Virus record (IMG/VR): IMGVR_UViG_3300032249_000373
Coordinates: 1-24,260 of that record
Length of the DNA: 24,260 nt
DNA from: a virus
Direction: 5' to 3' (one strand)
The notes under the pieces are model-generated. The model was not told the DNA's origin and searched no databases. It saw nothing but the letters and a program-made list of their open reading frames with translations. The position numbers and the translations under genes were made by a program. Numbering within the stretch: position 1 is the first letter of the stretch; the number at the start of each line of letters is the position of its first letter. This document shows positions 1-9,524 of the stretch, one piece after another.

Positions 1-127
1 CTAACAATTCTTTTGCTCTTTCTGTATTGTTATATAGCCATGGATCGTCATCTGAGTTAATTGTTGTAAGGACGGAATCAAGTGCATTAATCATATCGTC
101 TAAATCTTCTTTAATATAACCTAACAT
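1..127 (-). CDS. Small hypothetical protein (runs off window start)
   Basis: Manual translation MLGYIKEDLDDMINALDSVL...; ATG overlaps the upstream stop (TAATG), preceded by GAGGAG. Confidence 0.7.
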   Translation of the reverse strand, partial: MLGYIKEDLDDMINALDSVLTTINSDDDPWLYNNTERAKELL

Positions 128-291
128 TAGTTCTCCTCATCCCACCAGTATTTGACTATTGTATTTAAAGTAGTGTGAATTGCACAATCACAATCCCCAC
201 CGTTCATATTTTCCATGTATTCAAGATGTTGTTCGTTGTCCATATACATCTCATTGACTAGTTCATCAATCGTTCTCATTGTTTGGGTCAT
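127..291 (-). CDS. 54-aa acidic hypothetical protein, leaderless
   Basis: Manual translation MTQTMRTIDELVNEMY...GGDCDCAIH...WWDEEN; ATG 6 nt after a TACAAT -10 box. Confidence 0.75.
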   Translation of the reverse strand: MTQTMRTIDELVNEMYMDNEQHLEYMENMNGGDCDCAIHTTLNTIVKYWWDEEN

Positions 292-297
292 ATATTA

Positions 298-326
298 ATT
301 GTAGCCGAAATCGTGGAAAAATGCAA
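298..326 (-). promoter_or_regulatory. Sigma70-type promoter TTGCAT-17-TACAAT
   Basis: Read directly on the minus strand; TTACGTAA palindrome (331-338) and CRP-like site (347-362) upstream. Confidence 0.7.
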
Positions 327-381
327 CTTCTTACGTAATCGTAAACTGTGTTTAATATCACATTGTCGAAAAATTTTCTTG

Positions 382-455
382 CGATTCCAACGGGACTTGA
401 ACCCGTAGCCTCCACCGTGACAGGGTGGCGATCTAACCAATTGATCTATGGAACC
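382..455 (-). tRNA. tRNA-Asp(GTC), CCA not encoded
   Basis: Acceptor stem GGTTCCA/TGGAATC, anticodon arm CCACC-CTGTCAC-GGTGG, T-arm ACGGG-TTCAAGT-CCCGT, discriminator G followed by CAA. Confidence 0.95.
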
Positions 456-458
456 TTA

Positions 459-487
459 CGAGCAGTTTTAATTCTTGCTCAGGAATT
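459..487 (-). ncRNA. Repeated H-type pseudoknot element, copy 1
   Basis: AAUUC-C-UGAGCA-A-GAAUU-AAAAC-UGCUCG; covaries with four other copies. Confidence 0.75.
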
Positions 488-494
488 TTTTTAG

Positions 495-1511
495 TTATGC
501 AATCTGCAAAGTGCTTTGCACAATCTTTAGCAAACGATTTTTTTCTGCGTTGATAGCAGGGTCAAAACCACTTGCTGATGCTAGGATAGATTCGTTAGAA
601 CCACCACGAGCAGAACGGTACCAGTCAAGGCGTTCTGTTAGTGCATTGAAAGCACCCCACGCATTACCAGCAATCATACCATTAAACTCGCCTGTGTAGA
701 TGTCGTTGATAACATCTACCTTGTTTTCCCATTTCTTGAAAGCACCCTTAGAATCTTTTTCTGGCTTAGGGTATGCAGCAAGAATGATGTCATTGAATTG
801 CTTAGCACTGATTTCTGTTTCAATCATAGCCTTAGCCATGAGGTCAAAAGAATCCATGTACTTATGAGCAAGACCAAGAGTCTCACGAGCAACGGCAACC
901 TTACCAGAAGCGGTCTGAGTGTGGCGAATCTTGAAAGATTGCTTGACACCATTCTTTTTCTTAGTTGTGTTTAGTGCAAGGTTAAGAGTGTTAGCGCACA
1001 CAACACGAACAGGTGTAATGCTTGCTTGAATAGCGATTGAGCCGTCATGTGATGTGTTGATAAGTAAATAAGTCTTTACCTTATCTGCAACACCGTTAGG
1101 GTCTAGGACAGTTTCACGCTCTAGTGCTAATGCACCGAATACGACACGACCACCCTTGATTGAGCCAGCCGTTTCCCAACGACCTCCACCGTCAAGAATG
1201 TTGTCACCGAATGAGAATAAATCTTCATTCTGCATAACATGATAACGCTCACCTACGACACCAAGAATGTCTGTCTGTGTGTTATCTGTTGGATTGGTAC
1301 GCAAAACATACTGGTATGCTTTGTCGCTTGTTAAGTGTGATGGGGTTTCCAAATCTTCCAGACGAACATTCCAACCGTTAAGGCTTGCAGCCTCTAACAT
1401 TTCTGATGTTGTTTTTTCTTCTGTAAATACGGTACCCAATCCATGCCAAGCAGGTTCACGAAATGATGCGAATGATGCCTTACCATTTTGTGATTCTAGT
1501 TCATGTGCCAT
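495..1511 (-). CDS. DUF932 / TIGR03299 phage-plasmid protein (338 aa)
   Basis: MAHELE...REPAWHGLG, LGVVGERYHVMQNE, WETAGSIKGGRVVF, NTSHDGS, TPVRVVCANTL motifs; start moved to 1511, behind an AAGGAG RBS. Confidence 0.9.
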   Translation of the reverse strand: MAHELESQNGKASFASFREPAWHGLGTVFTEEKTTSEMLEAASLNGWNVRLEDLETPSHLTSDKAYQYVLRTNPTDNTQTDILGVVGERYHVMQNEDLFSFGDNILDGGGRWETAGSIKGGRVVFGALALERETVLDPNGVADKVKTYLLINTSHDGSIAIQASITPVRVVCANTLNLALNTTKKKNGVKQSFKIRHTQTASGKVAVARETLGLAHKYMDSFDLMAKAMIETEISAKQFNDIILAAYPKPEKDSKGAFKKWENKVDVINDIYTGEFNGMIAGNAWGAFNALTERLDWYRSARGGSNESILASASGFDPAINAEKNRLLKIVQSTLQIA

Positions 1512-1542
1512 GAGTTTTCTCCTTTTTGTTGTTGTTAATACA

Positions 1543-1572
1543 ATCATACACGAATGGGCTGACAAATGCAAA
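1543..1572 (-). promoter_or_regulatory. Early promoter TGTCAG-N10-TATGAT with TTGCAT -35
   Basis: One of eight copies with identical spacing. Confidence 0.75.
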
Positions 1573-1687
1573 TCGGTATAGTTAGACATAGGGCAATTCG
1601 GACATTTTTCTTGTGATCTTAAACACATGCTCGTAACTTGACATTGACTGGTCAGCCGTGTCGAAAAATTTTTCAAGGGATTGAGCG

Positions 1688-1715
1688 GAGCAGTTTTTAA
1701 ACATGCTCAGGTTTA
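1688..1715 (-). ncRNA. Repeated H-type pseudoknot element, copy 2
   Basis: UAAAC-CU-GAGCA-U-GUUUA-AAAAC-UGCUC. Confidence 0.75.
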
Positions 1716-1729
1716 TTAGTAGCCCCCTA

Positions 1730-2152
1730 CTAAATATCTACTCTGTCAACACTGGATGACAGGTATGCAATTTCTTCACCATATGAAACTGAATCAAAAT
1801 CAATTTCATGAATTGCATTAATTGCTTCTTCTTCATTACGTGCATTGACTGTAACTGAATATTGAACTGTAACTTCCAATTCAAATTCTTTTGTTAATTC
1901 AAAACCGCAAATGTTTGCAATCTCTTCTGCAACACCTTCATCAAAAGTGCCATTCTCTAGCGCTTCTAAGGTCCACTCTTGCATTTCATTACGCATACGG
2001 TTGCGCTCTGCAGCCTCGCCGTATGAACGTTGCGTTACTTCTTGAATGTGCTTTTCTAATTGGTTAATACGATTTTTGTTTTCCACTAACTGTGACTCAA
2101 GAAATTCTCTTGTCATGTAGTGCTTTGCGGTTTCTGTTGTTACCTGGTCCAT
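1730..2152 (-). CDS. Acidic hypothetical protein with N-terminal coiled coil (140 aa)
   Basis: Full ORF with its own promoter and purine-rich RBS. Confidence 0.8.
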   Translation of the reverse strand: MDQVTTETAKHYMTREFLESQLVENKNRINQLEKHIQEVTQRSYGEAAERNRMRNEMQEWTLEALENGTFDEGVAEEIANICGFELTKEFELEVTVQYSVTVNARNEEEAINAIHEIDFDSVSYGEEIAYLSSSVDRVDI

Positions 2153-2184
2153 GGGGGCCCTCTTTCTGTTAGTTGTTTAATTTA

Positions 2185-2214
2185 ATTATACTGGGTACCA
2201 CTGACAAATGTCAA
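2185..2214 (-). promoter_or_regulatory. Consensus promoter TTGACA-18-TATAAT with TGTCAG in the spacer
   Basis: Read directly on the minus strand. Confidence 0.85.
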
Positions 2215-2228
2215 GATCCCCTTACGGG

Positions 2229-2255
2229 GAGTAGTTTATACACATACTCAGGTGT
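2229..2255 (-). ncRNA. Repeated H-type pseudoknot element, copy 3
   Basis: ACAC-CU-GAGUA-U-GUGU-AUAAAC-UACUC; compensatory C-G to U-A change in stem 2. Confidence 0.75.
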
Positions 2256-2310
2256 CTTGTCTCAGGCATACCTACGCATCATGGCATAGGGCTTAGCAGA
2301 AACAAATTAT

Positions 2311-2733
2311 TTAGAGATAACGAGATACCGCTTGATAGGTAGAAGTAGAAACTACTTCCTCGTCTGTCATCTTTAGAATACGAATAGCGTTAGAGATTTC
2401 CTCTTTCTGCTCACGATAGTTATAGACAGAAAATGTCTCAAAGTCTTTCTCAGGCTCTTTAGGCAAGTCCTTGTCTGAAACTGTTAGGTCAAAGTCAATG
2501 TTAAGACTATTGTTCCATGAGCGATAGTTAGTGCGGAAGTTTTCTGCCTTACTGATGTTAGCAAGAGCATAGTCCTGCACTTCCTTCTGCCATGCCTTGC
2601 GTAGCAATTCGTATCGTGCTTCGTTGGCTTCTTGTGATGTGTAGTCAAGTTCTAGTTTATCTAGTGACTTTTGTAGTGCCTCAATTACTCGTTGAGTAGG
2701 TATCTTTACTGAGATTGCTTTTTGTCTTGCCAT
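2311..2733 (-). CDS. Hypothetical phage protein (140 aa)
   Basis: Full ORF, purine-rich leader, same strand as neighbours. Confidence 0.8.
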   Translation of the reverse strand: MARQKAISVKIPTQRVIEALQKSLDKLELDYTSQEANEARYELLRKAWQKEVQDYALANISKAENFRTNYRSWNNSLNIDFDLTVSDKDLPKEPEKDFETFSVYNYREQKEEISNAIRILKMTDEEVVSTSTYQAVSRYL

Positions 2734-2781
2734 CTTTTATTTTCTCTTTTCTTTGGTGGTTTAATTGTTAGGGGGTTGTGT

Positions 2782-2812
2782 TGAGCAGTTTTAGTAGTCA
2801 TGCTCAGGACTA
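2782..2812 (-). ncRNA. Repeated H-type pseudoknot element, copy 4
   Basis: UAGUC-C-UGAGCA-U-GACUA-CUAAAAC-UGCUCA. Confidence 0.75.
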
Positions 2813-2838
2813 AGTTACTATCTAACTGGCTTGTTAGA

Positions 2839-3003
2839 TTACTTAGCCGTCCAAGTTGTGTATCGGTGTGAGCCATTGACATCTAACTTTACACGAACAT
2901 TACCATTTGGTTGTGGGTTAATCTCTACGATTGTTCCTGTGACCTTTGACTTCTGTGTTGTGTATGTGTCGCCTACCTTGTATGTTGCTGTTGCTACTGA
3001 CAT
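2839..3003 (-). CDS. 54-aa small beta protein (SH3/KOW-like pattern)
   Basis: MSVATATYKVGDTY...GTIVEI...VRVKLD; start set behind AAGGAG RBS. Confidence 0.75.
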   Translation of the reverse strand: MSVATATYKVGDTYTTQKSKVTGTIVEINPQPNGNVRVKLDVNGSHRYTTWTAK

Positions 3004-3044
3004 TGTGTTTCTCCTTTTGTTTAGTGTGTTTTGCTTATGTATTA

Positions 3045-3073
3045 AGTGTAACATTTCCTACTGACATTATCAA
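3045..3073 (-). promoter_or_regulatory. Early promoter TTGATA-17-TACACT with TGTCAG box
   Basis: Same spacing as the other copies. Confidence 0.75.
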
Positions 3074-3114
3074 CATTTTTCCTAGATTTCTCACTATTTG
3101 AGACGCTTAGGGTA

Positions 3115-3130
3115 TGTGATTTATGTCACA
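3115..3130. promoter_or_regulatory. Perfect CRP/GlxR-type site TGTGA-N6-TCACA
   Basis: TGTGATTTATGTCACA; one of nine such sites. Confidence 0.75.
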
Positions 3131-3146
3131 TTGGACAGATTGAGGG

Positions 3147-3212
3147 TTATTGTCCACCTGCTATGATTAGTATGATTAGTAACCCTATTACTGTTGCTAT
3201 TACCATTTCCAT
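3147..3212 (-). CDS. 21-aa hydrophobic single-TM peptide
   Basis: MEMVIATVIGLLIILIIAGGQ; GAGGA RBS overlapping the gp88 stop. Confidence 0.6.
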   Translation of the reverse strand: MEMVIATVIGLLIILIIAGGQ

Positions 3213-3218
3213 TTTTCC

Positions 3219-3941
3219 TCATTTCTTAGTTGCAGAAAAAATTATGTCACTCTTAGAGTATACACACAATGAGCAAGAAACGCAAGCCGAGCCCTTTGTG
3301 CTTATGAGTGGTATCTGCTTATTGTTTTCAGGACACTTAGCCCCAGGTCTATTGGTCAATGCCTTTAAGTCTGCTTGTCCTATTAGAAAGTTTTTAGCAA
3401 GGTATGCTAATTTAATTCCATGATCTGTTTTTAATTCCACACCTGTATCTTTATTCTCGCTATCTGTGGAATAGTATAGTGAAAGATTTTCAATACCCTT
3501 CAACATTAGGGCAGCACTCTTAACTCTCGTGTATACCCAGAATTGAATATCAGGATTATTAAGGATGACATGCTTCCATGCGAATGTATAAGTATCGTTA
3601 AAGAAATCGCCGTCCCAATGAATACGGAATAGCATAGGGGCTTCACGCTTTACGCACTCAGCCTTGAAGTCTTTTATCATATCTTCAAGCAATGCTTCAA
3701 TGGTATCGTGATCAGCGTCCTTAATTAATTCCCAATTGTGCAATAAGTTTTTCTTTACTGTTGGGAATACCTTTTCCAATTTGCCTGCATAGCAAACACT
3801 CTCGCAGACAGACGTTGCACCAGGACATGAATAGTTTTTTCCTGCTGGTAATCCGAAAGTGTTAGCGATACTTGCTTGTTTTCCATTTGGTGTAACTGCA
3901 TTTGCTACTTTCCTATCTTTGCTTCTTAGTAGTTTAGTCAT
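3219..3941 (-). CDS. Gp88-like (Gene product 88 family) Cys-rich protein
   Basis: FGLPAG...SCPGATSVCESVCYA, FRIHWDGDFF, FWVYTR, KCPE...CVSCSLC motifs; likely start MTKLLRSKDRK at 3941. Confidence 0.8.
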   Translation of the reverse strand: MTKLLRSKDRKVANAVTPNGKQASIANTFGLPAGKNYSCPGATSVCESVCYAGKLEKVFPTVKKNLLHNWELIKDADHDTIEALLEDMIKDFKAECVKREAPMLFRIHWDGDFFNDTYTFAWKHVILNNPDIQFWVYTRVKSAALMLKGIENLSLYYSTDSENKDTGVELKTDHGIKLAYLAKNFLIGQADLKALTNRPGAKCPENNKQIPLISTKGSACVSCSLCVYSKSDIIFSATKK

Positions 3942-3946
3942 GGTGG

Positions 3947-4087
3947 CTACTCTCTTTCTTTCTTTAATTCTAACATAAGGGACTGACATTTTTTTCTATC
4001 GTATTTTTTCTTATTGGGTACGGCAGAGGCAGCGTTAGACCTACGTAATTCCATAAGCCTACGTAATTCCTCTTTGGTTTTCTTCAT
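3947..4087 (-). CDS. 46-aa very basic leaderless peptide
   Basis: MKKTKEELRRLMELRRSNAASAVPNKKKYDRKKCQSLMLELKKERE; ATG 5 nt after the TAAGAT -10. Confidence 0.65.
   Translation of the reverse strand: MKKTKEELRRLMELRRSNAASAVPNKKKYDRKKCQSLMLELKKERE
3967..3988 (-). promoter_or_regulatory. Early promoter TGTCAG-N10-TAGAAT for gp88
   Basis: Motif spacing conserved; extended -10 TGn. Confidence 0.7.
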
Positions 4088-4092
4088 ACTTA

Positions 4093-4121
4093 ATCTTAAC
4101 AGAATCCTGGGAAAATGTCAA
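4093..4121 (-). promoter_or_regulatory. Promoter TTGACA-17-TAAGAT
   Basis: Read directly; TTACGTAA palindrome just upstream (4125-4132). Confidence 0.75.
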
Positions 4122-4194
4122 ATCTTACGTAAACACGACACGCCCGACTGCGTTCGAAAATTTTGTGCGGGGAAGCACACAAAATCTTTTTTAG

Positions 4195-4437
4195 TTAATC
4201 AGCATCCTCAGTAAAAACATACAACGGAATTAAATCAGTGTAAGAATACTGAGTAACTTCCTTTTCACCAAATTCGTTTTCGGTTTGGATGTCATAGTTA
4301 TCTCCTGTTGAATCACTTTCAATAAAAATAACTTCAACAATGTCTTCACCGATCTTGATTAAATCACCAAGCATAACCTGGTCTGGTGTTAAGTTATCAG
4401 CGTGTAATAATTCCATAGAATTCATTGTAACAGTCAT
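4195..4437 (-). CDS. Acidic hypothetical protein (~80 aa)
   Basis: ORF track; start moved to the ATG coupled to the upstream stop (TAA-A-ATG). Confidence 0.7.
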   Translation of the reverse strand: MTVTMNSMELLHADNLTPDQVMLGDLIKIGEDIVEVIFIESDSTGDNYDIQTENEFGEKEVTQYSYTDLIPLYVFTEDAD

Positions 4438-4438
4438 T

Positions 4439-4504
4439 TTAACGGGTCCCCGCAAGTGCTATAAAAAACAAAAGAAAACCTGCAACGATAAAGAATTCCA
4501 CCAT
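4439..4504 (-). CDS. 21-aa hydrophobic single-TM peptide
   Basis: MVEFFIVAGFLLFFIALAGTR; TAATG overlap upstream, exactly fills the gap. Confidence 0.6.
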   Translation of the reverse strand: MVEFFIVAGFLLFFIALAGTR

Positions 4505-4824
4505 TATTCAAGCCCCAATCCTAATTCAAATCCTAGGTCCTCGTTATAGTCTTCAACGTTTTCAGGCAACCATGGATGCAAGTGGTGTTGCTCAATGATA
4601 GCCCACACTGGAGCGCAGGTTTCATTCTTGTAGTAAATACCGTCTGGCATCTCAATAGTTTCATCCCACAATTCCTGGTGTGCAAAATCAATTGCAGCAA
4701 TGCATACTGGTACCATGCTTAGTGGTACTGGTGGATAGTGATTACCCTGCAAGTGATAACCAATAGCCTGTTCAAGGCTTATGTCAATGTTTTCTGCTAG
4801 ATCCATCGCTGTGTTGTATCCCAT
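4504..4824 (-). CDS. Conserved phage hypothetical protein (HLQGNHYPPVP motif)
   Basis: Full ORF, translationally coupled on both sides. Confidence 0.8.
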   Translation of the reverse strand: MGYNTAMDLAENIDISLEQAIGYHLQGNHYPPVPLSMVPVCIAAIDFAHQELWDETIEMPDGIYYKNETCAPVWAIIEQHHLHPWLPENVEDYNEDLGFELGLGLE

Positions 4825-5042
4825 TATCGTGTTACCACCATTCCTGTTTTGTAAAAAGTTTTTGTGTGCATCTTGCCTGAAGGTTCAGAAAGATTAACTG
4901 TTGCGTATTCGTTAGCAAATCCGTGGTCAATAAACTTTTGATAAACTTCCACGGCAGATAAAGCATCTGAGTAGCGACCAACCCATTTAGGTGTAGGGGC
5001 TGAGTCATAGGTAACTGTTACTGAGTATAGGTATTCGTTCAT
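4824..5042 (-). CDS. Hypothetical protein (72 aa)
   Basis: TAATG coupling, AAGGAG RBS. Confidence 0.8.
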   Translation of the reverse strand: MNEYLYSVTVTYDSAPTPKWVGRYSDALSAVEVYQKFIDHGFANEYATVNLSEPSGKMHTKTFYKTGMVVTR

Positions 5043-5218
5043 TATGCATTCTCCTTATAAAATTCGTTCATGATACTTTCAGCATACCATTCGGTGTATT
5101 CAGTTTCAAGCGACACGCCCTTAGCGCACTCACAAAAATCTGTATCGTATTCACCATGATTATTGCCCCAAAATAGGACACCCTCATCATAGCAATCCAT
5201 GCAATCCCAAGTGTTCAT
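5042..5218 (-). CDS. 58-aa CxxC...CxC zinc-finger-like protein
   Basis: Manual translation MNTWDCMDCYDEGVLFWG...DFCECAKG... Confidence 0.75.
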   Translation of the reverse strand: MNTWDCMDCYDEGVLFWGNNHGEYDTDFCECAKGVSLETEYTEWYAESIMNEFYKENA

Positions 5219-5222
5219 TTAT

Positions 5223-5453
5223 TTACCCCTTTACCTTTACTGCGACTACCGCATAAAAATCATTCCACCGCTTTGGTGAAACTGAGTATCCTGTATAAGT
5301 AGGCTTAACAAGAATACGATACGCTTGGTATTCATTTCCATACCATGCATCATGAGGCGTTGCCTCTTTAATTTCTCCCTCAATGCCACGAGACTTTGAG
5401 CGATACTGTTTTCCTACGAGTAGGCTATCTATTGTATAGGTTAGTGCTGACAT
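5223..5453 (-). CDS. Hypothetical protein (76 aa)
   Basis: GAAAGG RBS; first gene after a promoter. Confidence 0.8.
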   Translation of the reverse strand: MSALTYTIDSLLVGKQYRSKSRGIEGEIKEATPHDAWYGNEYQAYRILVKPTYTGYSVSPKRWNDFYAVVAVKVKG

Positions 5454-5496
5454 TATGTCCGCCTTTCTTTTTCTTTAATTAACTTATTACTATGTA

Positions 5497-5518
5497 ATCC
5501 TATCATGGCAGGCTGACA
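5497..5518 (-). promoter_or_regulatory. Early promoter TGTCAG-N10-TAGGAT
   Basis: Conserved motif and spacing. Confidence 0.7.
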
Positions 5519-5567
5519 AATGTATAGTTACTAGCGAGTAATCTTAAATACTGAGACGCTCAACCTA

Positions 5568-5601
5568 TGTGATAAATCTCACAAATCTAGCCTGTGGATA
5601 A
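5568..5601. promoter_or_regulatory. CRP-type site (5568-5583) and DnaA box (5593-5601)
   Basis: TGTGATAAATCTCACA; TGTGGATAA is the reverse complement of TTATCCACA. Confidence 0.7.
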
Positions 5602-5638
5602 CCCTGTGGAGGACACGCCCGAACGGGTCGAAAAAATT

Positions 5639-5667
5639 TAAGCAGTTTTAGATCATGCTTAGGATTT
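5639..5667 (-). ncRNA. Repeated H-type pseudoknot element, copy 5
   Basis: AAAUC-C-UAAGCA-U-GAUCU-AAAAC-UGCUUA; compensatory G-C to A-U change in stem 2, one A.C mismatch in stem 1. Confidence 0.7.
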
Positions 5668-5685
5668 TGCTTAGCCTCTGCAGTG

Positions 5686-5871
5686 CTAAGACTTTGTTAA
5701 AATTCCATCAACGCAAGCATCATAGAATTTATTTTCATCAAATCTAGGATTATCAGAAGCAAACCATTCGCTAAATTCAAAAACTAATTGGTCAAAATCA
5801 TTTGAGTCAATGTCATCAACAAATTTATTTAGAATTTTTGCAGTTTCTACATAGTCTTTACGTGTCATCAT
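5686..5871 (-). CDS. Conserved phage hypothetical protein (MTRKDY...DNPRFD..KF..AC)
   Basis: Recognisable small phage family pattern; coupled start. Confidence 0.8.
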   Translation of the reverse strand: MMTRKDYVETAKILNKFVDDIDSNDFDQLVFEFSEWFASDNPRFDENKFYDACVDGILTKS

Positions 5872-6024
5872 TTAGTAAGTTTCCACTTTCTCTACATCTG
5901 CGACATTATCTAAACGCCATGTGTTGTTTACAATTTCAATAACTTTTTCAAATGAGTGGGCCTCATACGCAGGGTATGAGACCTCACCATTTACATTACG
6001 CACTGAAAGTTTTACGCCATTCAT
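5872..6024 (-). CDS. 50-aa hypothetical protein
   Basis: Manual translation MNGVKLSVRNVNGEVSYPAYEAHSF...; TAATG overlap. Confidence 0.7.
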   Translation of the reverse strand: MNGVKLSVRNVNGEVSYPAYEAHSFEKVIEIVNNTWRLDNVADVEKVETY

Positions 6025-6230
6025 TAGTCGGCCACCTTTAGAATTGCATAGGACCCGCCTGCGTTAATTTCATCTAGTGCAGATTTAATTCGTGGTGCAA
6101 GTAAATCCTTGAGCATTGACTCAAGCATGATTACACGCATTGACTCCTCTAATGCTAACAGTTGTGCACCGATTGGATGAGTTTCGTCTACTTCTGTCAC
6201 GAAGTGTAGTGAGTGAGGTACTTTTACCAT
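6024..6230 (-). CDS. Hypothetical protein (68 aa)
   Basis: AGGA RBS; operon context. Confidence 0.75.
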   Translation of the reverse strand: MVKVPHSLHFVTEVDETHPIGAQLLALEESMRVIMLESMLKDLLAPRIKSALDEINAGGSYAILKVAD

Positions 6231-6248
6231 TTTTAGTTTTCCTATTCT

Positions 6249-6446
6249 TTAGTTTGAGTTAGTGAGTGTACGAGTGCCACGAATTGTGCCACTAATTCCA
6301 AGAGAGTCGCAAGCGACTTTAACAGATACGCCAACAGGTAATTGTGTTGGGTATTGTGATACGAATTGAGCAACCTGACCTCGTGATGAGAAGTTGATTT
6401 TTTTGGTAGAACCTGAAAAGGTTTCTAGTGTAACAGTGTAAGTCAT
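6249..6446 (-). CDS. Hypothetical protein (65 aa)
   Basis: GAAAGGA RBS downstream of a promoter. Confidence 0.75.
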   Translation of the reverse strand: MTYTVTLETFSGSTKKINFSSRGQVAQFVSQYPTQLPVGVSVKVACDSLGISGTIRGTRTLTNSN

Positions 6447-6478
6447 TGAGTGACTTCCTTTCTTTAAGTGATAAGACT

Positions 6479-6544
6479 ATCCTATCACGGGGGGCTGACA
6501 AATTGGGGCACTTATTCGCTAGGCTCACTGTGATACTGGTCACA
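6479..6544 (-). promoter_or_regulatory. Early promoter TGTCAG-N10-TAGGAT with perfect CRP-type site (6529-6544)
   Basis: Read directly from the sequence. Confidence 0.7.
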
Positions 6545-6597
6545 TTTATTTGCTAGGCTCATTGCCTTGTCTGTCCTTATTTAATTGTTATACTAGA

Positions 6598-6691
6598 AGT
6601 ATAGCAAAGAAATGTCAAAAAGTCAAATCCTAACACGGCGTGTCGCATGTGAGTTACACCACATCTATCCTGTGGATAAGCCTGTGGATAA
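6598..6691 (-). promoter_or_regulatory. Promoter TTGACT-17-TATACT, CRP-like site (6648-6663), tandem DnaA boxes (6671-6679, 6683-6691)
   Basis: Read directly from the sequence. Confidence 0.7.
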
Positions 6692-6704
6692 CTTTTTTCG
6701 AAAA

Positions 6705-6730
6705 TTTTTCAGGGGATCAATCCTGAAAAA
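6705..6730 (-). terminator. Probable intrinsic terminator hairpin
   Basis: 9-bp stem TTTTTCAGG/CCTGAAAAA followed by TTTT on the minus strand, just after the last gene of the operon. Confidence 0.5.
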
Positions 6731-6737
6731 CTTTTTA

Positions 6738-6797
6738 CTAACTATGAATTGCAATAACAAAAGCAAAACAAGTAATTGCGATTAGAATAACTAACAT
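6738..6797 (-). CDS. 19-aa hydrophobic peptide
   Basis: MLVILIAITCFAFVIAIHS; GAGGA RBS and TAATG overlap. Confidence 0.55.
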   Translation of the reverse strand: MLVILIAITCFAFVIAIHS

Positions 6798-6886
6798 TAG
6801 TTTTCCTCAATTTCATTTAGTAAATCCCAAAGTATTGGCTCTAACTCTAACGCAACTGCATCAAGTTTTTCTTGAAGTGTTTTCAT
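6797..6886 (-). CDS. 29-aa acidic helical peptide
   Basis: MKTLQEKLDAVALELEPILWDLLNEIEEN; GAGGA RBS, abuts the upstream stop. Confidence 0.65.
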   Translation of the reverse strand: MKTLQEKLDAVALELEPILWDLLNEIEEN

Positions 6887-7030
6887 TTATTCCTCAATCT
6901 GTCTTTGATAGTAGTCAATTACATGAAAGTCTAATTGTCTCTCAAGTGGCATAGCCTTTAGCCATGAATAGGCAGACTCAAAATCATCTGCCTCTACATC
7001 TACATACAACTCAAAATTAAATACTGGCAT
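6887..7030 (-). CDS. 47-aa hypothetical protein
   Basis: MPVFNFELYVDVEADDFESAYSWL...; AAGGAGGT RBS, TAATG overlap. Confidence 0.75.
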   Translation of the reverse strand: MPVFNFELYVDVEADDFESAYSWLKAMPLERQLDFHVIDYYQRQIEE

Positions 7031-7194
7031 TATTTAACCTCCTTGTATAAAAAGTCCCAAGCCTTACGGCATAACACGATAGATTTGCAGTTATCGCAAC
7101 AGATAACTCCATGAGGGTTAAGGTCTAGGTCATAGACATCTATTGTGGTAGTAACCGCACCACACACGGATTTAATTGGTACATAGGTACTCAT
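7030..7194 (-). CDS. 54-aa Cys-rich (zinc-ribbon-like) protein
   Basis: MSTYVPIKSVCGAVTT...VICCDNCKSIVLC...; ATGA overlap. Confidence 0.75.
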   Translation of the reverse strand: MSTYVPIKSVCGAVTTTIDVYDLDLNPHGVICCDNCKSIVLCRKAWDFLYKEVK

Positions 7195-7373
7195 CTTGTA
7201 AGTCCTTCCTTTCCATAAGTGTTAATAAAATCAGGGAGAGCCATAACGCCCTTGTAGTCTTTACATCTAGGGCAAAATCTATTCCACCCGTCAAATAGTG
7301 TTATGCAGAAAGCGCAGATGTTATCCATAGCGCATAAGCCTTGCTCATCTATAAATTGCATAGTGTCGTTCAT
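7191..7373 (-). CDS. 60-aa CxxC-CxxC zinc-ribbon protein
   Basis: CAFC...CPRC; start moved to the ATGA overlap at 7373. Confidence 0.75.
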   Translation of the reverse strand: MNDTMQFIDEQGLCAMDNICAFCITLFDGWNRFCPRCKDYKGVMALPDFINTYGKEGLTR

Positions 7374-7546
7374 GCTGACACCTTCCAATCTGTCCAAGCA
7401 GGGAATTGTTCTGGGTCACTATCATAGTAGTAACGCTCAATGTTGCTATCGCAAATCATGCATAGTGTGAATTGCTCATCTCCAATTTCTGAGATAGCAG
7501 AAACAAGAGGCTCGTGCCACTTGCATAGTGTGTTTAGTGTAGTCAT
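7370..7546 (-). CDS. 58-aa CxxH...CxxC zinc-finger-like protein
   Basis: MTTLNTLCKWHEP...LCMICDSNIERYY...; GAAAGGTAGG RBS. Confidence 0.75.
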   Translation of the reverse strand: MTTLNTLCKWHEPLVSAISEIGDEQFTLCMICDSNIERYYYDSDPEQFPAWTDWKVSA

Positions 7547-7601
7547 TTTGACCTACCTTTCTTTAAGGGATTTCTGTACCCTTGTTTTTCTTTATACTGT
7601 A

Positions 7602-7820
7602 AGTATAGCAGGGGGGTCTGACAAATTGGAGGGGACAAAAGGTATCAAAACGGACATTGTGAGATTAGTCACATGTGTTTCATGTCACATAGGTTATCCA
7701 CACATGAATGGTCAGACCTGTGGATAACTTTTTTCGACATCCCCTGTGACGGAAATCACAAAAATACTTTACCGACACGCCCGAAAAACAGGCTAATTTG
7801 TCAGTGGTAGGTGCTAGAAT
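7602..7820. promoter_or_regulatory. Divergent promoter pair with three CRP-type sites, two DnaA boxes and a GACACGCCCGA box
   Basis: Minus TGTCAG-N10-TATACT (7602-7623); plus TGTCAG-N10-TAGAAT (7799-7820); CRP 7658-7673, 7674-7689, 7745-7760; DnaA 7694-7702, 7719-7727. Confidence 0.75.
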
Positions 7821-7856
7821 ACTATGTATAAAGATTAACAAAGAAAGGTGTTCCCA

Positions 7857-8003
7857 ATGAATACACTAGAAAGACTAAGAGCAGAGCAACAGGCTCGCTA
7901 CGCTAAAGAGCGTGAGGCTAACAAGGCTAAGATTGAGGCTATGTTTGCCAATAACTCTCGCCCACTAAACAATGCCCACCTATTAGGAAAGGAGGAAAAC
8001 TAA
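7857..8003 (+). CDS. 48-aa helical hypothetical protein
   Basis: MNTLERLRAEQQARYAKEREANKAKIEAMF...; GAAAGGTG RBS. Confidence 0.75.
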   Translation: MNTLERLRAEQQARYAKEREANKAKIEAMFANNSRPLNNAHLLGKEEN

Positions 8004-8167
8004 TGAAAACCAATTTTGAGATTACACAAGAGATTAACACTCTTGCTACTAAGCACTATGGTGATGTATCACTGTCATGGGTTTGGGGTTGTGCACAAGC
8101 ACTACTAACCGCACAACAGTTAGAGTTAATTCTAAACATGCTACTAGAGAAAGAGGCTAGTCAATGA
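8003..8167 (+). CDS. 54-aa hypothetical protein
   Basis: MKTNFEITQEINTLATKHYGD...; AAGGAGG RBS, TAATG overlap. Confidence 0.75.
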   Translation: MKTNFEITQEINTLATKHYGDVSLSWVWGCAQALLTAQQLELILNMLLEKEASQ

Positions 8168-8262
8168 GCGCAATGTACGCACACACTTGTGAAACTTGTG
8201 GGGATACAGGTATCATCATTTTTGATAAAAACGAGACCCGCATAGACCCTTGCAAATGTTAG
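8164..8262 (+). CDS. 32-aa CxxC...CxC zinc-finger peptide
   Basis: MSAMYAHTCETCGDTGIIIFDKNETRIDPCKC; ATGA overlap. Confidence 0.7.
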   Translation: MSAMYAHTCETCGDTGIIIFDKNETRIDPCKC

Positions 8263-8348
8263 AATAAATCGGTGGCACTAGTGTTAGAATTATTGACGGC
8301 ACTAGTGCTAAGATCTTTGCACGCACCCCACTAGTGTGCTCACTAATT
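8257..8348. repeat. Tandem repeats carrying the palindrome CACTAGTG
   Basis: CACTAGTG at 8276, 8300 and 8329; TGTTAGAAT...GGCACTAGTG duplicated. Confidence 0.7.
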
Positions 8349-8466
8349 AAATTATTTATTCTACACAAAAGTATGTATCATACACTTATACAAAATATTC
8401 AGATTTTGGCAAAAGTGGTTTTTATAAAATTTTTCAGATTTTGACGGGGTAGGGTATAATAATCAT

Positions 8467-8607
8467 ATGGCCATACTAGATAACGTAGATAACAATAAAT
8501 ATCCACTATTTGAGACAGAAGCATCTTCTCTGGAGATAAAGGTTTTTTCAGATACATGTTGCAATGGGTGTACTTGCCAAAGCCCATTTGCTCATATAAA
8601 AGAATAA
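8467..8607 (+). CDS. 46-aa protein with CCNGCTC motif, leaderless
   Basis: MAILDNVDNNKYPLFE...DTCCNGCTCQSP; ATG 6 nt after TATAAT (8455-8460). Confidence 0.65.
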   Translation: MAILDNVDNNKYPLFETEASSLEIKVFSDTCCNGCTCQSPFAHIKE

Positions 8608-8609
8608 GA

Positions 8610-9323
8610 CTACTTCTTATCTCTTTCTCTTTGCATTTGTCTGTAGGATCCTTGTCCTATAATCTTTGTTAAAATTTTTGAACGTGAATTAGTAAACATT
8701 TTTTCAAATTTGTCATTATTTGATAATATCTCAAAATTATATTTTGTTCTCTTAAATGGAATGTATTGGACAAAAGCAGATCCTCTTTCAATAAAAACAT
8801 CTTTGTCTTTTGTGTGTAGCATTATTTGTGGATTAACCTCATGATGAACATCTGTGTCAATAATTCCAGGGACTATAGAAAAGTCTTTATTAAAATCAAA
8901 AAATATAGGTAGTTGTAAAACAGAATATCCCTTTGGAGTAATAATTTTCCAAGGACATTGTGCTTTTATTATTGCAACACACTCAGATCCAAGTGGTTCT
9001 GGAACCATGTGATCTAAAAGTTGTTGTTTCGGGTGCATAGACCAATTAAGGTCATTATTTAAACCAGTTTTCCAAAATAACTCATCTGTTTCTGACTGAT
9101 AATGAAGAAGAGAATCTGACCACATTGGAATAATAAAACCTTGAGAAAAATAATCTGGAAAAGAAGGACAGGTTCTAATATTTGGAAAATTATTAAATTT
9201 TTCTGGAACAGGTAAAGATTTCCACCAAGAAGGAATAAATGATTTAGCAGGTCTTGGTTTACACTCTTCAATAGACTCTAGTCCAGGGAACGTAGATACT
9301 ATTTTTATGCTATTGTTTTTCAT
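8610..9323 (-). CDS. DUF6065-like / dUTPase-fold-like phage protein, paralog 1
   Basis: IPSWWK..CPSFPDYFSQGFIIP..PWKIITPKGYS..IVPGIIDTD..QYIPFKR motifs shared with three other ORFs in the window. Confidence 0.65.
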   Translation of the reverse strand: MKNNSIKIVSTFPGLESIEECKPRPAKSFIPSWWKSLPVPEKFNNFPNIRTCPSFPDYFSQGFIIPMWSDSLLHYQSETDELFWKTGLNNDLNWSMHPKQQLLDHMVPEPLGSECVAIIKAQCPWKIITPKGYSVLQLPIFFDFNKDFSIVPGIIDTDVHHEVNPQIMLHTKDKDVFIERGSAFVQYIPFKRTKYNFEILSNNDKFEKMFTNSRSKILTKIIGQGSYRQMQRERDKK

Positions 9324-9326
9324 ATA

Positions 9327-9524
9327 CTACCATTTTCCCACAGGACATTTTGCATTAGCAAGCATTGACTTAGCAGCCATAAAGCAACCACACTTCTTGC
9401 ATGTTTGGGTCTTTGGTCTAAAGAAATCACAGCCTTTACAAATTTCTAATCTATGTGCTGCAACTTCTTCAGGGCTTCTAGGAGATCCATTAAATAGATC
9501 CCAAGGTCTTACGTCATCACTCAT
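9327..9524 (-). CDS. Cys-rich small protein (DUF6171-like)
   Basis: RLEICKGC...CKKCGCFM..K.....KCPVGKW; leaderless after TATAAT. Confidence 0.7.
   Translation of the reverse strand: MSDDVRPWDLFNGSPRSPEEVAAHRLEICKGCDFFRPKTQTCKKCGCFMAAKSMLANAKCPVGKW

Follow-up and report, generated by a model that had tools for sequence, protein, structure and literature searches.

Small exoribonuclease-resistant RNAs (xrRNAs) have been described from plant, fungal and insect RNA viruses as the coremin motif, or xrRNA-C, and as xrRNA-WCC, in which coremin takes a Watson-Crick form (Dilweg et al. 2019, PMC6546385; 2023, PMC10520033 and PMC10321173). In coremin, the pair closing the loop needs to be C-G, with U-A tolerated and G-C lethal or inactive (PMC6546385). 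The STAXI family (RF01728), found in Enterobacterales only, is made of 2-3 tandem pseudoknots with UUCG tetraloops (Weinberg et al. 2010, PMC2864571). Here we analysed the initial 24,260 nt (hereafter the window) of a 105,870-nt uncultured phage genome from lake-type samples (IMG/VR record IMGVR_UViG_3300032249_000373; 37% G+C, assembled with terminal repeats), in which a first-pass annotation had proposed that a five-copy repeat forms an RNA pseudoknot placed 3′ of early genes. Comparative analysis identifies the element as a compact H-type pseudoknot of 27-30 nt, tied to the stop codon of the upstream gene, whose closest characterised RNA is coremin and which belongs to a very widespread family. 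Its genomic context leads us to propose, with roughly even confidence, that it is a 3′ untranslated region (UTR) module forming and capping the 3′ end of the upstream messenger RNA (mRNA).

Genes lie on the minus strand throughout positions 1-9,500 of the window. The degenerate pattern CT[GA]AG[CT]A-N4-12-AAACT[GA]CT[CT], derived from the first-pass annotation, matched the minus strand five times and the plus strand never (Table 1). When extended to the whole genome, the search returned these five copies plus a sixth on the plus strand, where the surrounding genes are also on the plus strand, and reversed-pattern controls gave 0 and 1 matches. All copies, on both genome arms, are thus oriented in the sense of the adjoining genes. 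The five annotated minus-strand copies, all in sense orientation and 7-55 nt past a stop codon, were all reproduced, as were a stem 1 that differs yet pairs in each copy and the stem-2 variants GAGCA/UGCUC, GAGUA/UACUC and AAGCA/UGCUU. In the sixth copy stem 1 is again different and paired, and stem 2 (GAGUA/UGCUC) includes a U-G pair. This copy (genome region 79,003-80,248) lies 64 nt past an Hsp20-family gene, from which a TAGGCTATAAT box and two mini open reading frames (ORFs) separate it, and 24 nt ahead of the next ATG. In one related phage (G001), its counterpart starts only ~6 nt past a TATAAT box, the same box as TAGGCTATAAT near copy 6, and could form the 5′ end of a transcript.

The consensus runs from a C-final 5′ strand of stem 1 (S1) through CU (loop 1, L1), RRRYA (5′ strand of stem 2, S2), a single A/U junction nucleotide, a G-initial 3′ strand of S1 and (N)AAAC (loop 3, L3) to URYYY (3′ strand of S2). 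S1 comprises 3-6 bp of free sequence with a C-G closing pair, L1 is C(U), S2 comprises 5-6 bp (mostly GAGCA/UGCUC) and the A-rich L3 ends in AAAC. We searched 80 related contigs, retrieved by protein search with the DUF932 gene next to copy 1 (90-98% amino-acid identity), using a descriptor that fixed only CU in L1 and AAC at the end of L3 and allowed any S1 of at least 3 bp and any S2 of 5 bp. It returned 361 matches in gene sense and 8 antisense, with 5 and 21 matches in reversed-sequence controls; orientation in relatives is therefore sense-biased and not random. The sense matches included 39 distinct S1 4-mers and S2 forms such as GAGCA/UGCUC, GAGUA/UGCUC, AAGCA/UGCUU, GAGUA/UACUC, GAACA/UGUUC, GGACA/UGUCC, GGCCA/UGGCC, UAGCA/UGCUA, AGACA/UGUCU and GGGUA/UGCCC. 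In a gapless alignment of 141 distinct copies, whose selection required pairing, 92% of cells were paired against 77% in shuffles, the covariation score was 0.428 against 0.157 in shuffles, and both-sided changes occurred at 9 of 10 pairs. Sliding the partners by 1-3 columns brought pairing down to 32-40%. G-U pairs were common (35/141 at one S2 pair), and CU and AAAC were invariant in this alignment as in the window copies.

Evidence independent of this pairing-selected alignment came from a mismatch test across IMG/VR, where the compensated form GGGCA...UGCCC was found in at least 119 stretches against 5 for the G.A and 19 for the A.C mismatch, and GAACA...UGUUC in at least 119 against 11 for its A.C mismatch. 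Furthermore, in loci recovered with patterns for S2, which specify nothing of S1 except the closing pair, an S1 of at least 3 bp was present in 80/81 and 78/82 matches, for ~14% expected by chance. Both helices, the strand and the invariant loop nucleotides can thus be regarded as established to the limit of comparative analysis, and the annotated fold, with a variable S1 and a conserved S2 that both covary in the wider alignment, is strongly supported. Nested folding shows the S2 hairpin alone, at -4 to -7 kcal/mol, so that stability, if any, must derive from the pseudoknot.

The likeness to coremin extends over the core of the element. Both are tiny and start with a first hairpin of 3-5 bp, whose closing pair here (columns 6/15) is C-G in 138, U-A in 2 and G-C in 1 of the 141 sequences. 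The coremin loop rule YGAD/YGNNAD is followed at the first (C7, invariant) and penultimate (A13, invariant) nucleotides, the last being T in 200, A in 132, C in 23 and G in 2 cases (not C in coremin). In both, two tolerant nucleotides precede an AAACU that is essential there (A16-A17-C18-U19) and invariant here (A21, A22, A23, C24 and T25 in the 141 sequences); a pseudoknot between the loop and the nucleotides past AAAC, with A-minor contacts of the A-run with stem 1, is proposed for both, and both lie mostly in 3′ UTRs and intergenic regions. By contrast, the second loop nucleotide is an invariant U here and a required G in coremin, and an 8-nt loop with a Watson-Crick S2 of 5-6 bp replaces the 2-3 pairs of coremin. 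To stall Xrn1, coremin requires a second hairpin of at least 4 bp (hp2), which was not found here as a family feature: such a hairpin, 0-3 nt past S2, occurred in 6% of bacterial and 4% of phage-clade elements, against 14% and 12% at random positions, and in the window after copy 3 only. The hosts here are DNA phages and bacteria, which have no Xrn1, and the element is anchored to an upstream stop codon. The U at the second loop position and the lack of hp2 led us to reject membership in coremin; the element may nevertheless act like coremin, possibly with opposite polarity.

Luteovirus-type compact H-type pseudoknots that stimulate -1 frameshifting (beet western yellows virus, BWYV; pea enation mosaic virus 1, PEMV-1; sugarcane yellow leaf virus, ScYLV) and the T-even gene 32 pseudoknot fall in the same size class of ~28 nt. 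With BWYV the element shares a C-initial loop 1 of 1-2 nt crossing stem 2, a single nucleotide extruded at the helical junction and, along stem 1, an A-rich loop 3 with AAAC at its end. The gene 32 pseudoknot serves as a 5′ operator for autoregulation, to which gp32 binds. Unlike either, the element occurs in multiple copies per genome and has a longer stem 2. It has no slippery heptamer and no -1 frame, and a stop codon stands ahead of every window copy; the preceding stop codons and the lack of a conserved -1 frame downstream exclude it from the luteoviral frameshift class. Likewise, preQ1-I riboswitches (RF00522) have a junction loop of 4-6 nt with a ligand-pairing C and reside in the 5′ UTR of queuosine-related genes, whereas here there was no Rfam match at E<=10, the junction loop is a single A/U and the neighbours are diverse. 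ToxI-type (type III) antitoxins are tandem identical repeats beside a toxin endoribonuclease gene; the copies here are single units 0.5-3 kb apart with differing S1, although toxin genes were not specifically searched. The protein decoy of ToxI type suggested by the first-pass annotation is weakened by this dispersal. With STAXI the element shares a small pseudoknot unit near antirestriction, ssb, topoisomerase and integrase genes of mobile elements, and a role in single-stranded DNA (ssDNA) has been considered there; membership was rejected, as the model matched neither the window (E<=10) nor 58 family loci (gathering score) and the published description differs (PMC2864571).

The family reaches far beyond this phage. 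Five complete genomes of its clade carry 5-8 strong copies each, clustered in the early region beside the DUF932 gene, with an occasional copy elsewhere. A prokaryotic scan with the commonest sequence form, on one genome per species, gave 82 matches at 80 loci among the matches listed; in that list, the exact 24-nt geometry of the window copies recurred in 56/82 and an S1 of at least 3 bp, in many distinct sequences, in 66/82. The record labels listed include Saccharibacteria, Aminicenantes, Calothrix, Lachnospiraceae, Lactobacillaceae, Alistipes, Akkermansia, Omnitrophota, Polynucleobacter, Brucella and others, as well as one metagenome-assembled genome (MAG) labelled Methanobrevibacter. The neighbours at these prokaryotic loci are small genes, mostly without assigned function, and those that could be named are of phage or mobile-element types (ArdA, ArdC, DUF2958, DUF7249, helix-turn-helix (HTH) regulators, head-morphogenesis and scaffold proteins); a few loci look chromosomal. 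Flanking genes are mutually unrelated, with 16 Pfam families of which none occurred in more than 2 of 52 downstream genes. Judged from these and the IMG/VR matches, the element is a very widespread family, present in phages (hundreds of them unrelated) and, across many bacterial phyla, in mobile elements and at some chromosomal sites. The copies of the proposed five-copy phage family are real, while the family is not private to one phage.

No copy matched Rfam 15, either in the window at E<=10 or at the 58 family loci at gathering score, which agrees with the earlier impression that no known family fits; the only Rfam matches near family loci were tRNAs, one hammerhead, S-adenosylmethionine (SAM) riboswitches, a group I intron and GP20-b. 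Our literature searches on phage or bacterial pseudoknots after stop codons, on phage xrRNAs and on RNase J yielded no description of the element, and megablast of the first 8 kb against GenBank phages gave no match.

Comparison across these sets indicates that the element is tied to the upstream stop codon and not to the downstream start. In the phage clade the median distance from stop codon to S1 is 14 nt, and only 18 of 349 copies lie within a same-strand ORF. Among the 33 elements of the bacterial sample with a nearby ORF, the spacer peaks at 4-7 nt (17 elements), and in two independent viral samples (n=80 and n=78 elements), taken from the IMG/VR loci recovered with S2 patterns, spacers of 4-8 nt were found in 33/80 of one and only 14/78 of the other, shorter ones almost never. 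A spacer of ~5 nt is the nearest at which a structure sits unmelted by a ribosome with the stop codon in its A site. TAA, TAG and TGA all occur as the preceding stop, and the distance to the following start codon is broad (10th-90th percentile 20-152 nt). The motif itself contains a stop at the L1/S2 boundary, UGA (U8-G9-A10) or, in the AAGCA variant, UAA.

Four kinds of neighbour were found on the 3′ side of the element: a promoter, a U-tract, a tRNA at a distance of 2-9 nt, or the ribosome-binding site of the following gene. The promoter of the next gene lies 3′ of window copies 1 (past the tRNA), 2, 3 and 5, so that downstream mRNAs initiated there lack the pseudoknot, and -10 boxes occur within 45 nt downstream for 14% of elements against 1.9% of controls. 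U-tracts (at least 6 T in 9, directly 3′ of S2) follow 21% of bacterial elements against 3% in background, 11% against 2% in the phage clade, and 26 of 78 elements in one viral sample; they concern just 10-33% of family members, yet exceed the two measured backgrounds ~5- to 7-fold. Among window copies only copy 5 has one (AAAUUUUUU, followed by a promoter module), and one U-tract copy of the family sits at a convergent gene junction. A consensus scan at the five window sites found no ordinary intrinsic terminator (hairpin plus U-tract).

The junctions with tRNAs are the most informative of these arrangements. A tRNA begins 2-9 nt past S2 at ~13 separate junctions involving at least 9 tRNA identities, where ~0.05 would be expected per 80 elements. 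The junction of copy 1 with tRNA-Asp is kept in essentially all 80 relatives, with a spacer of 3-9 nt, and a second site in a relative has tRNA-Arg at 5 nt. Elsewhere, an Eggerthellaceae contig carries tRNA-Ser 5 nt past the pseudoknot, and the two viral samples contributed ten additional junctions (Asn, Lys, Leu, Tyr, Thr, Asp, Pro, and Gly in a mismatch-control locus). One pseudoknot-tRNA junction heads an array of 11 tRNAs.

Since promoters, U-tracts, tRNA 5′ ends and convergent genes stand behind the element, the mature upstream RNA would end a few nucleotides past S2. Structure, strand, placement and breadth were observed; RNA 3′ ends at this point and a block to nucleases are what we infer. 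Among the four functions considered in the first-pass annotation, this context favours a 3′ nuclease block or a termination-processing signal. Our proposal is that the 3′ end of the upstream message is both marked and capped by the pseudoknot, and that this end is produced a few nucleotides past S2 by means that vary from site to site. At sites with a U-tract, transcription would probably terminate, with S2 standing in for the terminator hairpin. At tRNA sites, the RNase P cut at the abutting tRNA would make the mRNA end, so that cleavage at the 5′ end of tRNA-Asp would leave the mRNA upstream of copy 1 ending in the pseudoknot plus GUAA. At the other sites, exonucleases may trim back from a downstream end to the pseudoknot. 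Tails of 2-9 nt behind a stable fold are shorter than RNase II, RNase R and polynucleotide phosphorylase (PNPase) need to engage. The folded pseudoknot, with a tail too short for 3′-to-5′ exonucleases, would thereby protect the coding region, and its placement would be as near the stop codon as the terminating ribosome permits.

Sense-oriented structures at gene boundaries that end at, and protect, the 3′ end of the upstream message are known from the early-gene RNase III sites of T7, from intercistronic stabilisers of the repetitive extragenic palindromic (REP) type and from the MALAT1 triple helix with its mascRNA. The MALAT1 end is made by an RNase P cut at the abutting tRNA-like mascRNA, which resembles the RNase P-made end proposed here for pseudoknot-tRNA junctions. 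The folds and enzymes of these analogues are unrelated; to our knowledge, no 28-nt pseudoknot is among them, nor is any of them shared by different bacterial phyla.

Several observations weigh against an end-forming cap. The near identity of S2 and the loops across phyla hints at more than a plain roadblock needs, and suggests either a specific partner or a demanding, precise tertiary fold that serves another purpose. Coremin, the nearest characterised relative, blocks a 5′-to-3′ enzyme, i.e. with the opposite polarity. Many family members, together with copies 4 and 6, lie 12-60 nt ahead of the next ribosome-binding site and appear internal to polycistronic transcripts; copy 4 in particular is mid-operon, ~50 nt ahead of the ATG at 2733, with no obvious promoter. 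In such internal positions the element could form an end solely in the sense of a barrier to decay or of partial termination. The annotated placement 3′ of genes therefore holds as far as stop codons are concerned, while the element does not always mark a transcript end (copies 4 and 6 stand 24-55 nt before a start codon, copy 6 behind a promoter). Closeness to the stop codon could also partly reflect genome compaction. In addition, two RNA contigs of relatives continue straight past the position of copy 4. For the RNA runs in which relatives occur, contigs were what could be used; these carry no information on transcript ends, strand or level, and holes in their coverage are meaningless. The elements are present in such contigs; the early genes are covered, and one lake metatranscriptome contig over the gene of a relative ends inside the 3′ strand of S2, both of these being weak hints.

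Other explanations were weighed as well. One is a bacterial or phage xrRNA of coremin type, halting 5′-to-3′ decay (RNase J) that arrives from the upstream cistron and shielding the next gene, tRNA or tRNA array. The shared core (C-G closing pair in 138/141, loop C...A-(A/U), invariant AAACU), a Watson-Crick S2 as in xrRNA-WCC variants, the many copies ahead of a ribosome-binding site or tRNA and the possible transcript 5′ end at the G001 counterpart of copy 6 all speak for it; we nevertheless consider it unlikely, because the second hairpin required by coremin is not enriched past S2 (4-6% against 12-14% in controls), the anchoring is to the upstream stop and not to the downstream start, 4 of 6 copies are 5′ of the next promoter so that most downstream mRNAs would lack them, and copies at U-tracts or convergent junctions have no downstream target to protect. 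A somewhat smaller chance is given to a translational insulator directed at the ribosome, which would occupy the mRNA entrance of a ribosome whose A site holds the stop codon, prevent sliding, re-initiation or read-through and uncouple neighbouring genes. The 4-8 nt spacer peak with its sharp lower limit is the geometry of recoding pseudoknots, the motif contains a UGA or UAA at L1/S2 where some ORFs terminate, and pseudoknots of coremin type bring scanning ribosomes to a stall and promote -1 frameshifting, as was also seen in a screen with E. coli (PMC10520033, PMC10321173). However, this geometry is not kept by the window copies (Table 1), three stop codons are used and the UGA of the motif is in no fixed frame with the upstream stop, no extension frame is conserved downstream, and the tRNAs, U-tracts and promoters directly behind the element would be left unexplained.

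The conservation across phyla argues for a universal partner or none, and in that respect would suit a recognition or cleavage site at which a universal RNase (P, E, Y or Z), or the RNA itself, divides polycistronic transcripts of mobile genetic elements (MGEs) into units. The alignment would also suggest that the U8|G9 step at the outer end of S2, with a mostly-A 3′ "discriminator" (+1 A in 59-65%), resembles the -1/+1 context of RNase P, and in one prophage the element occupies the same type of gene boundary as a hammerhead ribozyme. With ~28 nt and ~9 invariant positions it is, however, smaller than any known natural self-cleaving class; a T-loop-like element and CCA are both absent, no Rfam ribozyme model matched its copies in the window or at the 58 loci, and a hammerhead co-occurred at 1 of the 58 loci scanned, all of which makes cleavage quite improbable. 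The same conservation, the preQ1-I-like pseudoknot topology with invariant loop nucleotides and a subset of copies in 5′-UTR-like positions, with a U-tract directly past S2 and then a ribosome-binding site, could fit a small aptamer that senses a universal metabolite or a defence signal and adjusts read-through to the following gene accordingly. This reading, already proposed at first pass, is weakened by the mutually unrelated genes on either side (16 Pfam families, none in more than 2/52 downstream genes) and has become very unlikely: no Rfam riboswitch model matched in the window even at E<=10, the junction loop is a single A/U with no obvious pocket, the 3′ strand of S2 has no Shine-Dalgarno overlap and the majority of copies are anchored to stop codons. 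Least probable of all, in our view, is a role as ssDNA, with the element serving recombination or delimiting cassettes, either in the manner of attC or as a short repeat that aids early-gene shuffling. Copies do occur in consecutive intergenic regions directly past the stops of small, variable genes, gene content between copies varies among relatives, and one relative has copies 47 nt apart; against this, copies on either arm of the genome are oriented with transcription, G-U pairs are common (35 of 141 sequences at one S2 pair), the U-tracts and tRNAs behind the element have their role at the level of the transcript, contigs from RNA libraries contain the element, and no integron integrase is known nearby, although the loci were not searched for one.

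Two further candidates were ruled out: a gene-specific riboswitch or leader, given the unrelated flanking genes, and a SECIS-like or stop-codon-specific recoding signal, since TAA, TAG and TGA all precede the element and its UGA is in no fixed frame.

A more far-reaching version of the end-capping proposal, which we advance tentatively and regard as rather doubtful, is that the family represents a new, factor-independent way of ending and sealing bacterial messages, a pseudoknot terminator and 3′ cap that would correspond, in prokaryotes, to the xrRNAs of viruses and to the MALAT1 triple helix. Such a device would operate in phages and mobile elements of most phyla, mechanically stopping nucleases and perhaps ribosomes, with RNase P-made capped ends at tRNAs. 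If this were true, a 28-nt sequence that can be written from its consensus would provide a portable, host-independent module setting mRNA ends and half-lives, tunable through the free choice of S1; it would also explain the punctuation of early transcripts in AT-rich phages with few ordinary terminators, and would link the xrRNAs of plant viruses to an ancient prokaryotic fold. Regardless of function, a very widespread and strongly covarying RNA family is missing from Rfam. Adding it would improve the annotation of phages and MGEs, as it marks true gene ends and their strand, and structural biology would gain a minimal triplex pseudoknot with thousands of natural variants.

Table 1. Pseudoknot copies and adjoining features. 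Coordinates are those of the window, except for copy 6, which lies beyond it and is given in genome coordinates; spacing is from stop codon to S1.
Feature	Position	Strand	Core pattern match	Spacing (nt)	Details
tRNA-Asp(GUC)	381-455	-			starts 4 nt 3′ of copy 1
Pseudoknot copy 1	460-487	-	460-482	7	46.4 bits, E 3.4e-10; S1 AAUUC/GAAUU; past the DUF932 stop codon, A7 run ahead of the copy being 3′ of that stop
Copy 1 parts		-			S1 487-483/474-470; L1 482-481 (CU); S2 480-476/464-460; junction nt 475; L3 469-465 (AAAAC)
DUF932 gene	495-1511	-			stop codon 495-497; 3′ UTR contains copy 1
Pseudoknot copy 2	1688-1715	-	1688-1710	14	S1 UAAAC/GUUUA; past stop 1730-1732; 5′ of the DUF932 promoter module
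Hairpin CCCC-GUAA-GGGG (2230-2217) and promoter	2185-2230	-			hairpin immediately 3′ of copy 3; then a 12/12 consensus promoter serving the next gene (TTGACA at 2214, TATAAT end at 2185)
Pseudoknot copy 3	2229-2255	-	2229-2251	55	S1 ACAC/GUGU, S2 GAGUA/UACUC; past stop 2311-2313
Pseudoknot copy 4	2783-2812	-	2783-2807	26	S1 UAGUC/GACUA, longer L3; past stop 2839-2841
Pseudoknot copy 5	5640-5665	-	5640-5662	20	S1 AUC/GAU, S2 AAGCA/UGCUU; past stop 5686-5688
Pseudoknot copy 6 (genome)	79,484-79,510	+	79,489-79,510		S1 UGUC/GACA

Some loci of the family show further arrangements around the pseudoknot. In bacterial MAG loci L110, L118, L122, L137 and L152, short Cys-rich ORFs of ~20-38 codons with an "...AHCxEGCxxxS" end terminate exactly on the motif. 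These MAGs are labelled Aminicenantes, Thermodesulfobacteriota, Spirochaetota and "Deltaproteobacteria", and the loci adjoin Peptidase_C26/GATase, Fur-family and nucleoside-phosphorylase genes, looking chromosomal and not MGE-like. In a prophage on an Alistipes finegoldii contig (L096:964-1348, minus strand), a 73-codon ORF is flanked 5′ by a RAGATH-1 hammerhead (1272-1348) and 3′ by the pseudoknot (964-987), all on the same strand. At another locus (L399:2863-2950, minus strand), a GP20-b RNA (RF03003), a candidate cis-regulator upstream of portal genes, lies 5 nt 3′ of the pseudoknot. The relative with copies 47 nt apart (L077:5231-5337, plus strand) has two copies with different S1 and no intervening ORF; a gene cassette could have been lost here, leaving the pair as its scar, and early genes may also be shuffled more readily through the repeated module.

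Within the window itself, a stereotyped promoter module recurs on the minus strand between 340 and 7830, 3′ of copies 1 (past the tRNA), 2 and 5 and near 4160. It is composed of a AAAWTTTTTCGAC A/T tract, TTATCCACA boxes, TGTGA-N6-TCACA palindromes and a CATTTGTCAG...TATGAT-type promoter. A gene ending at 4195 has no pseudoknot, and is followed (4160-4195, minus strand) by an imperfect hairpin UUUUGUGUGC...GCACAAAA and then UUUU; as this hairpin-U end stands beside pseudoknot ends, two types of gene end alternate in one early region. Finally, a strongly hydrophobic mini-ORF of 21 codons, MEMVIATVIGLLIILIIAGGQ, lies immediately 3′ of a GP88-family gene (3150-3215, minus strand).

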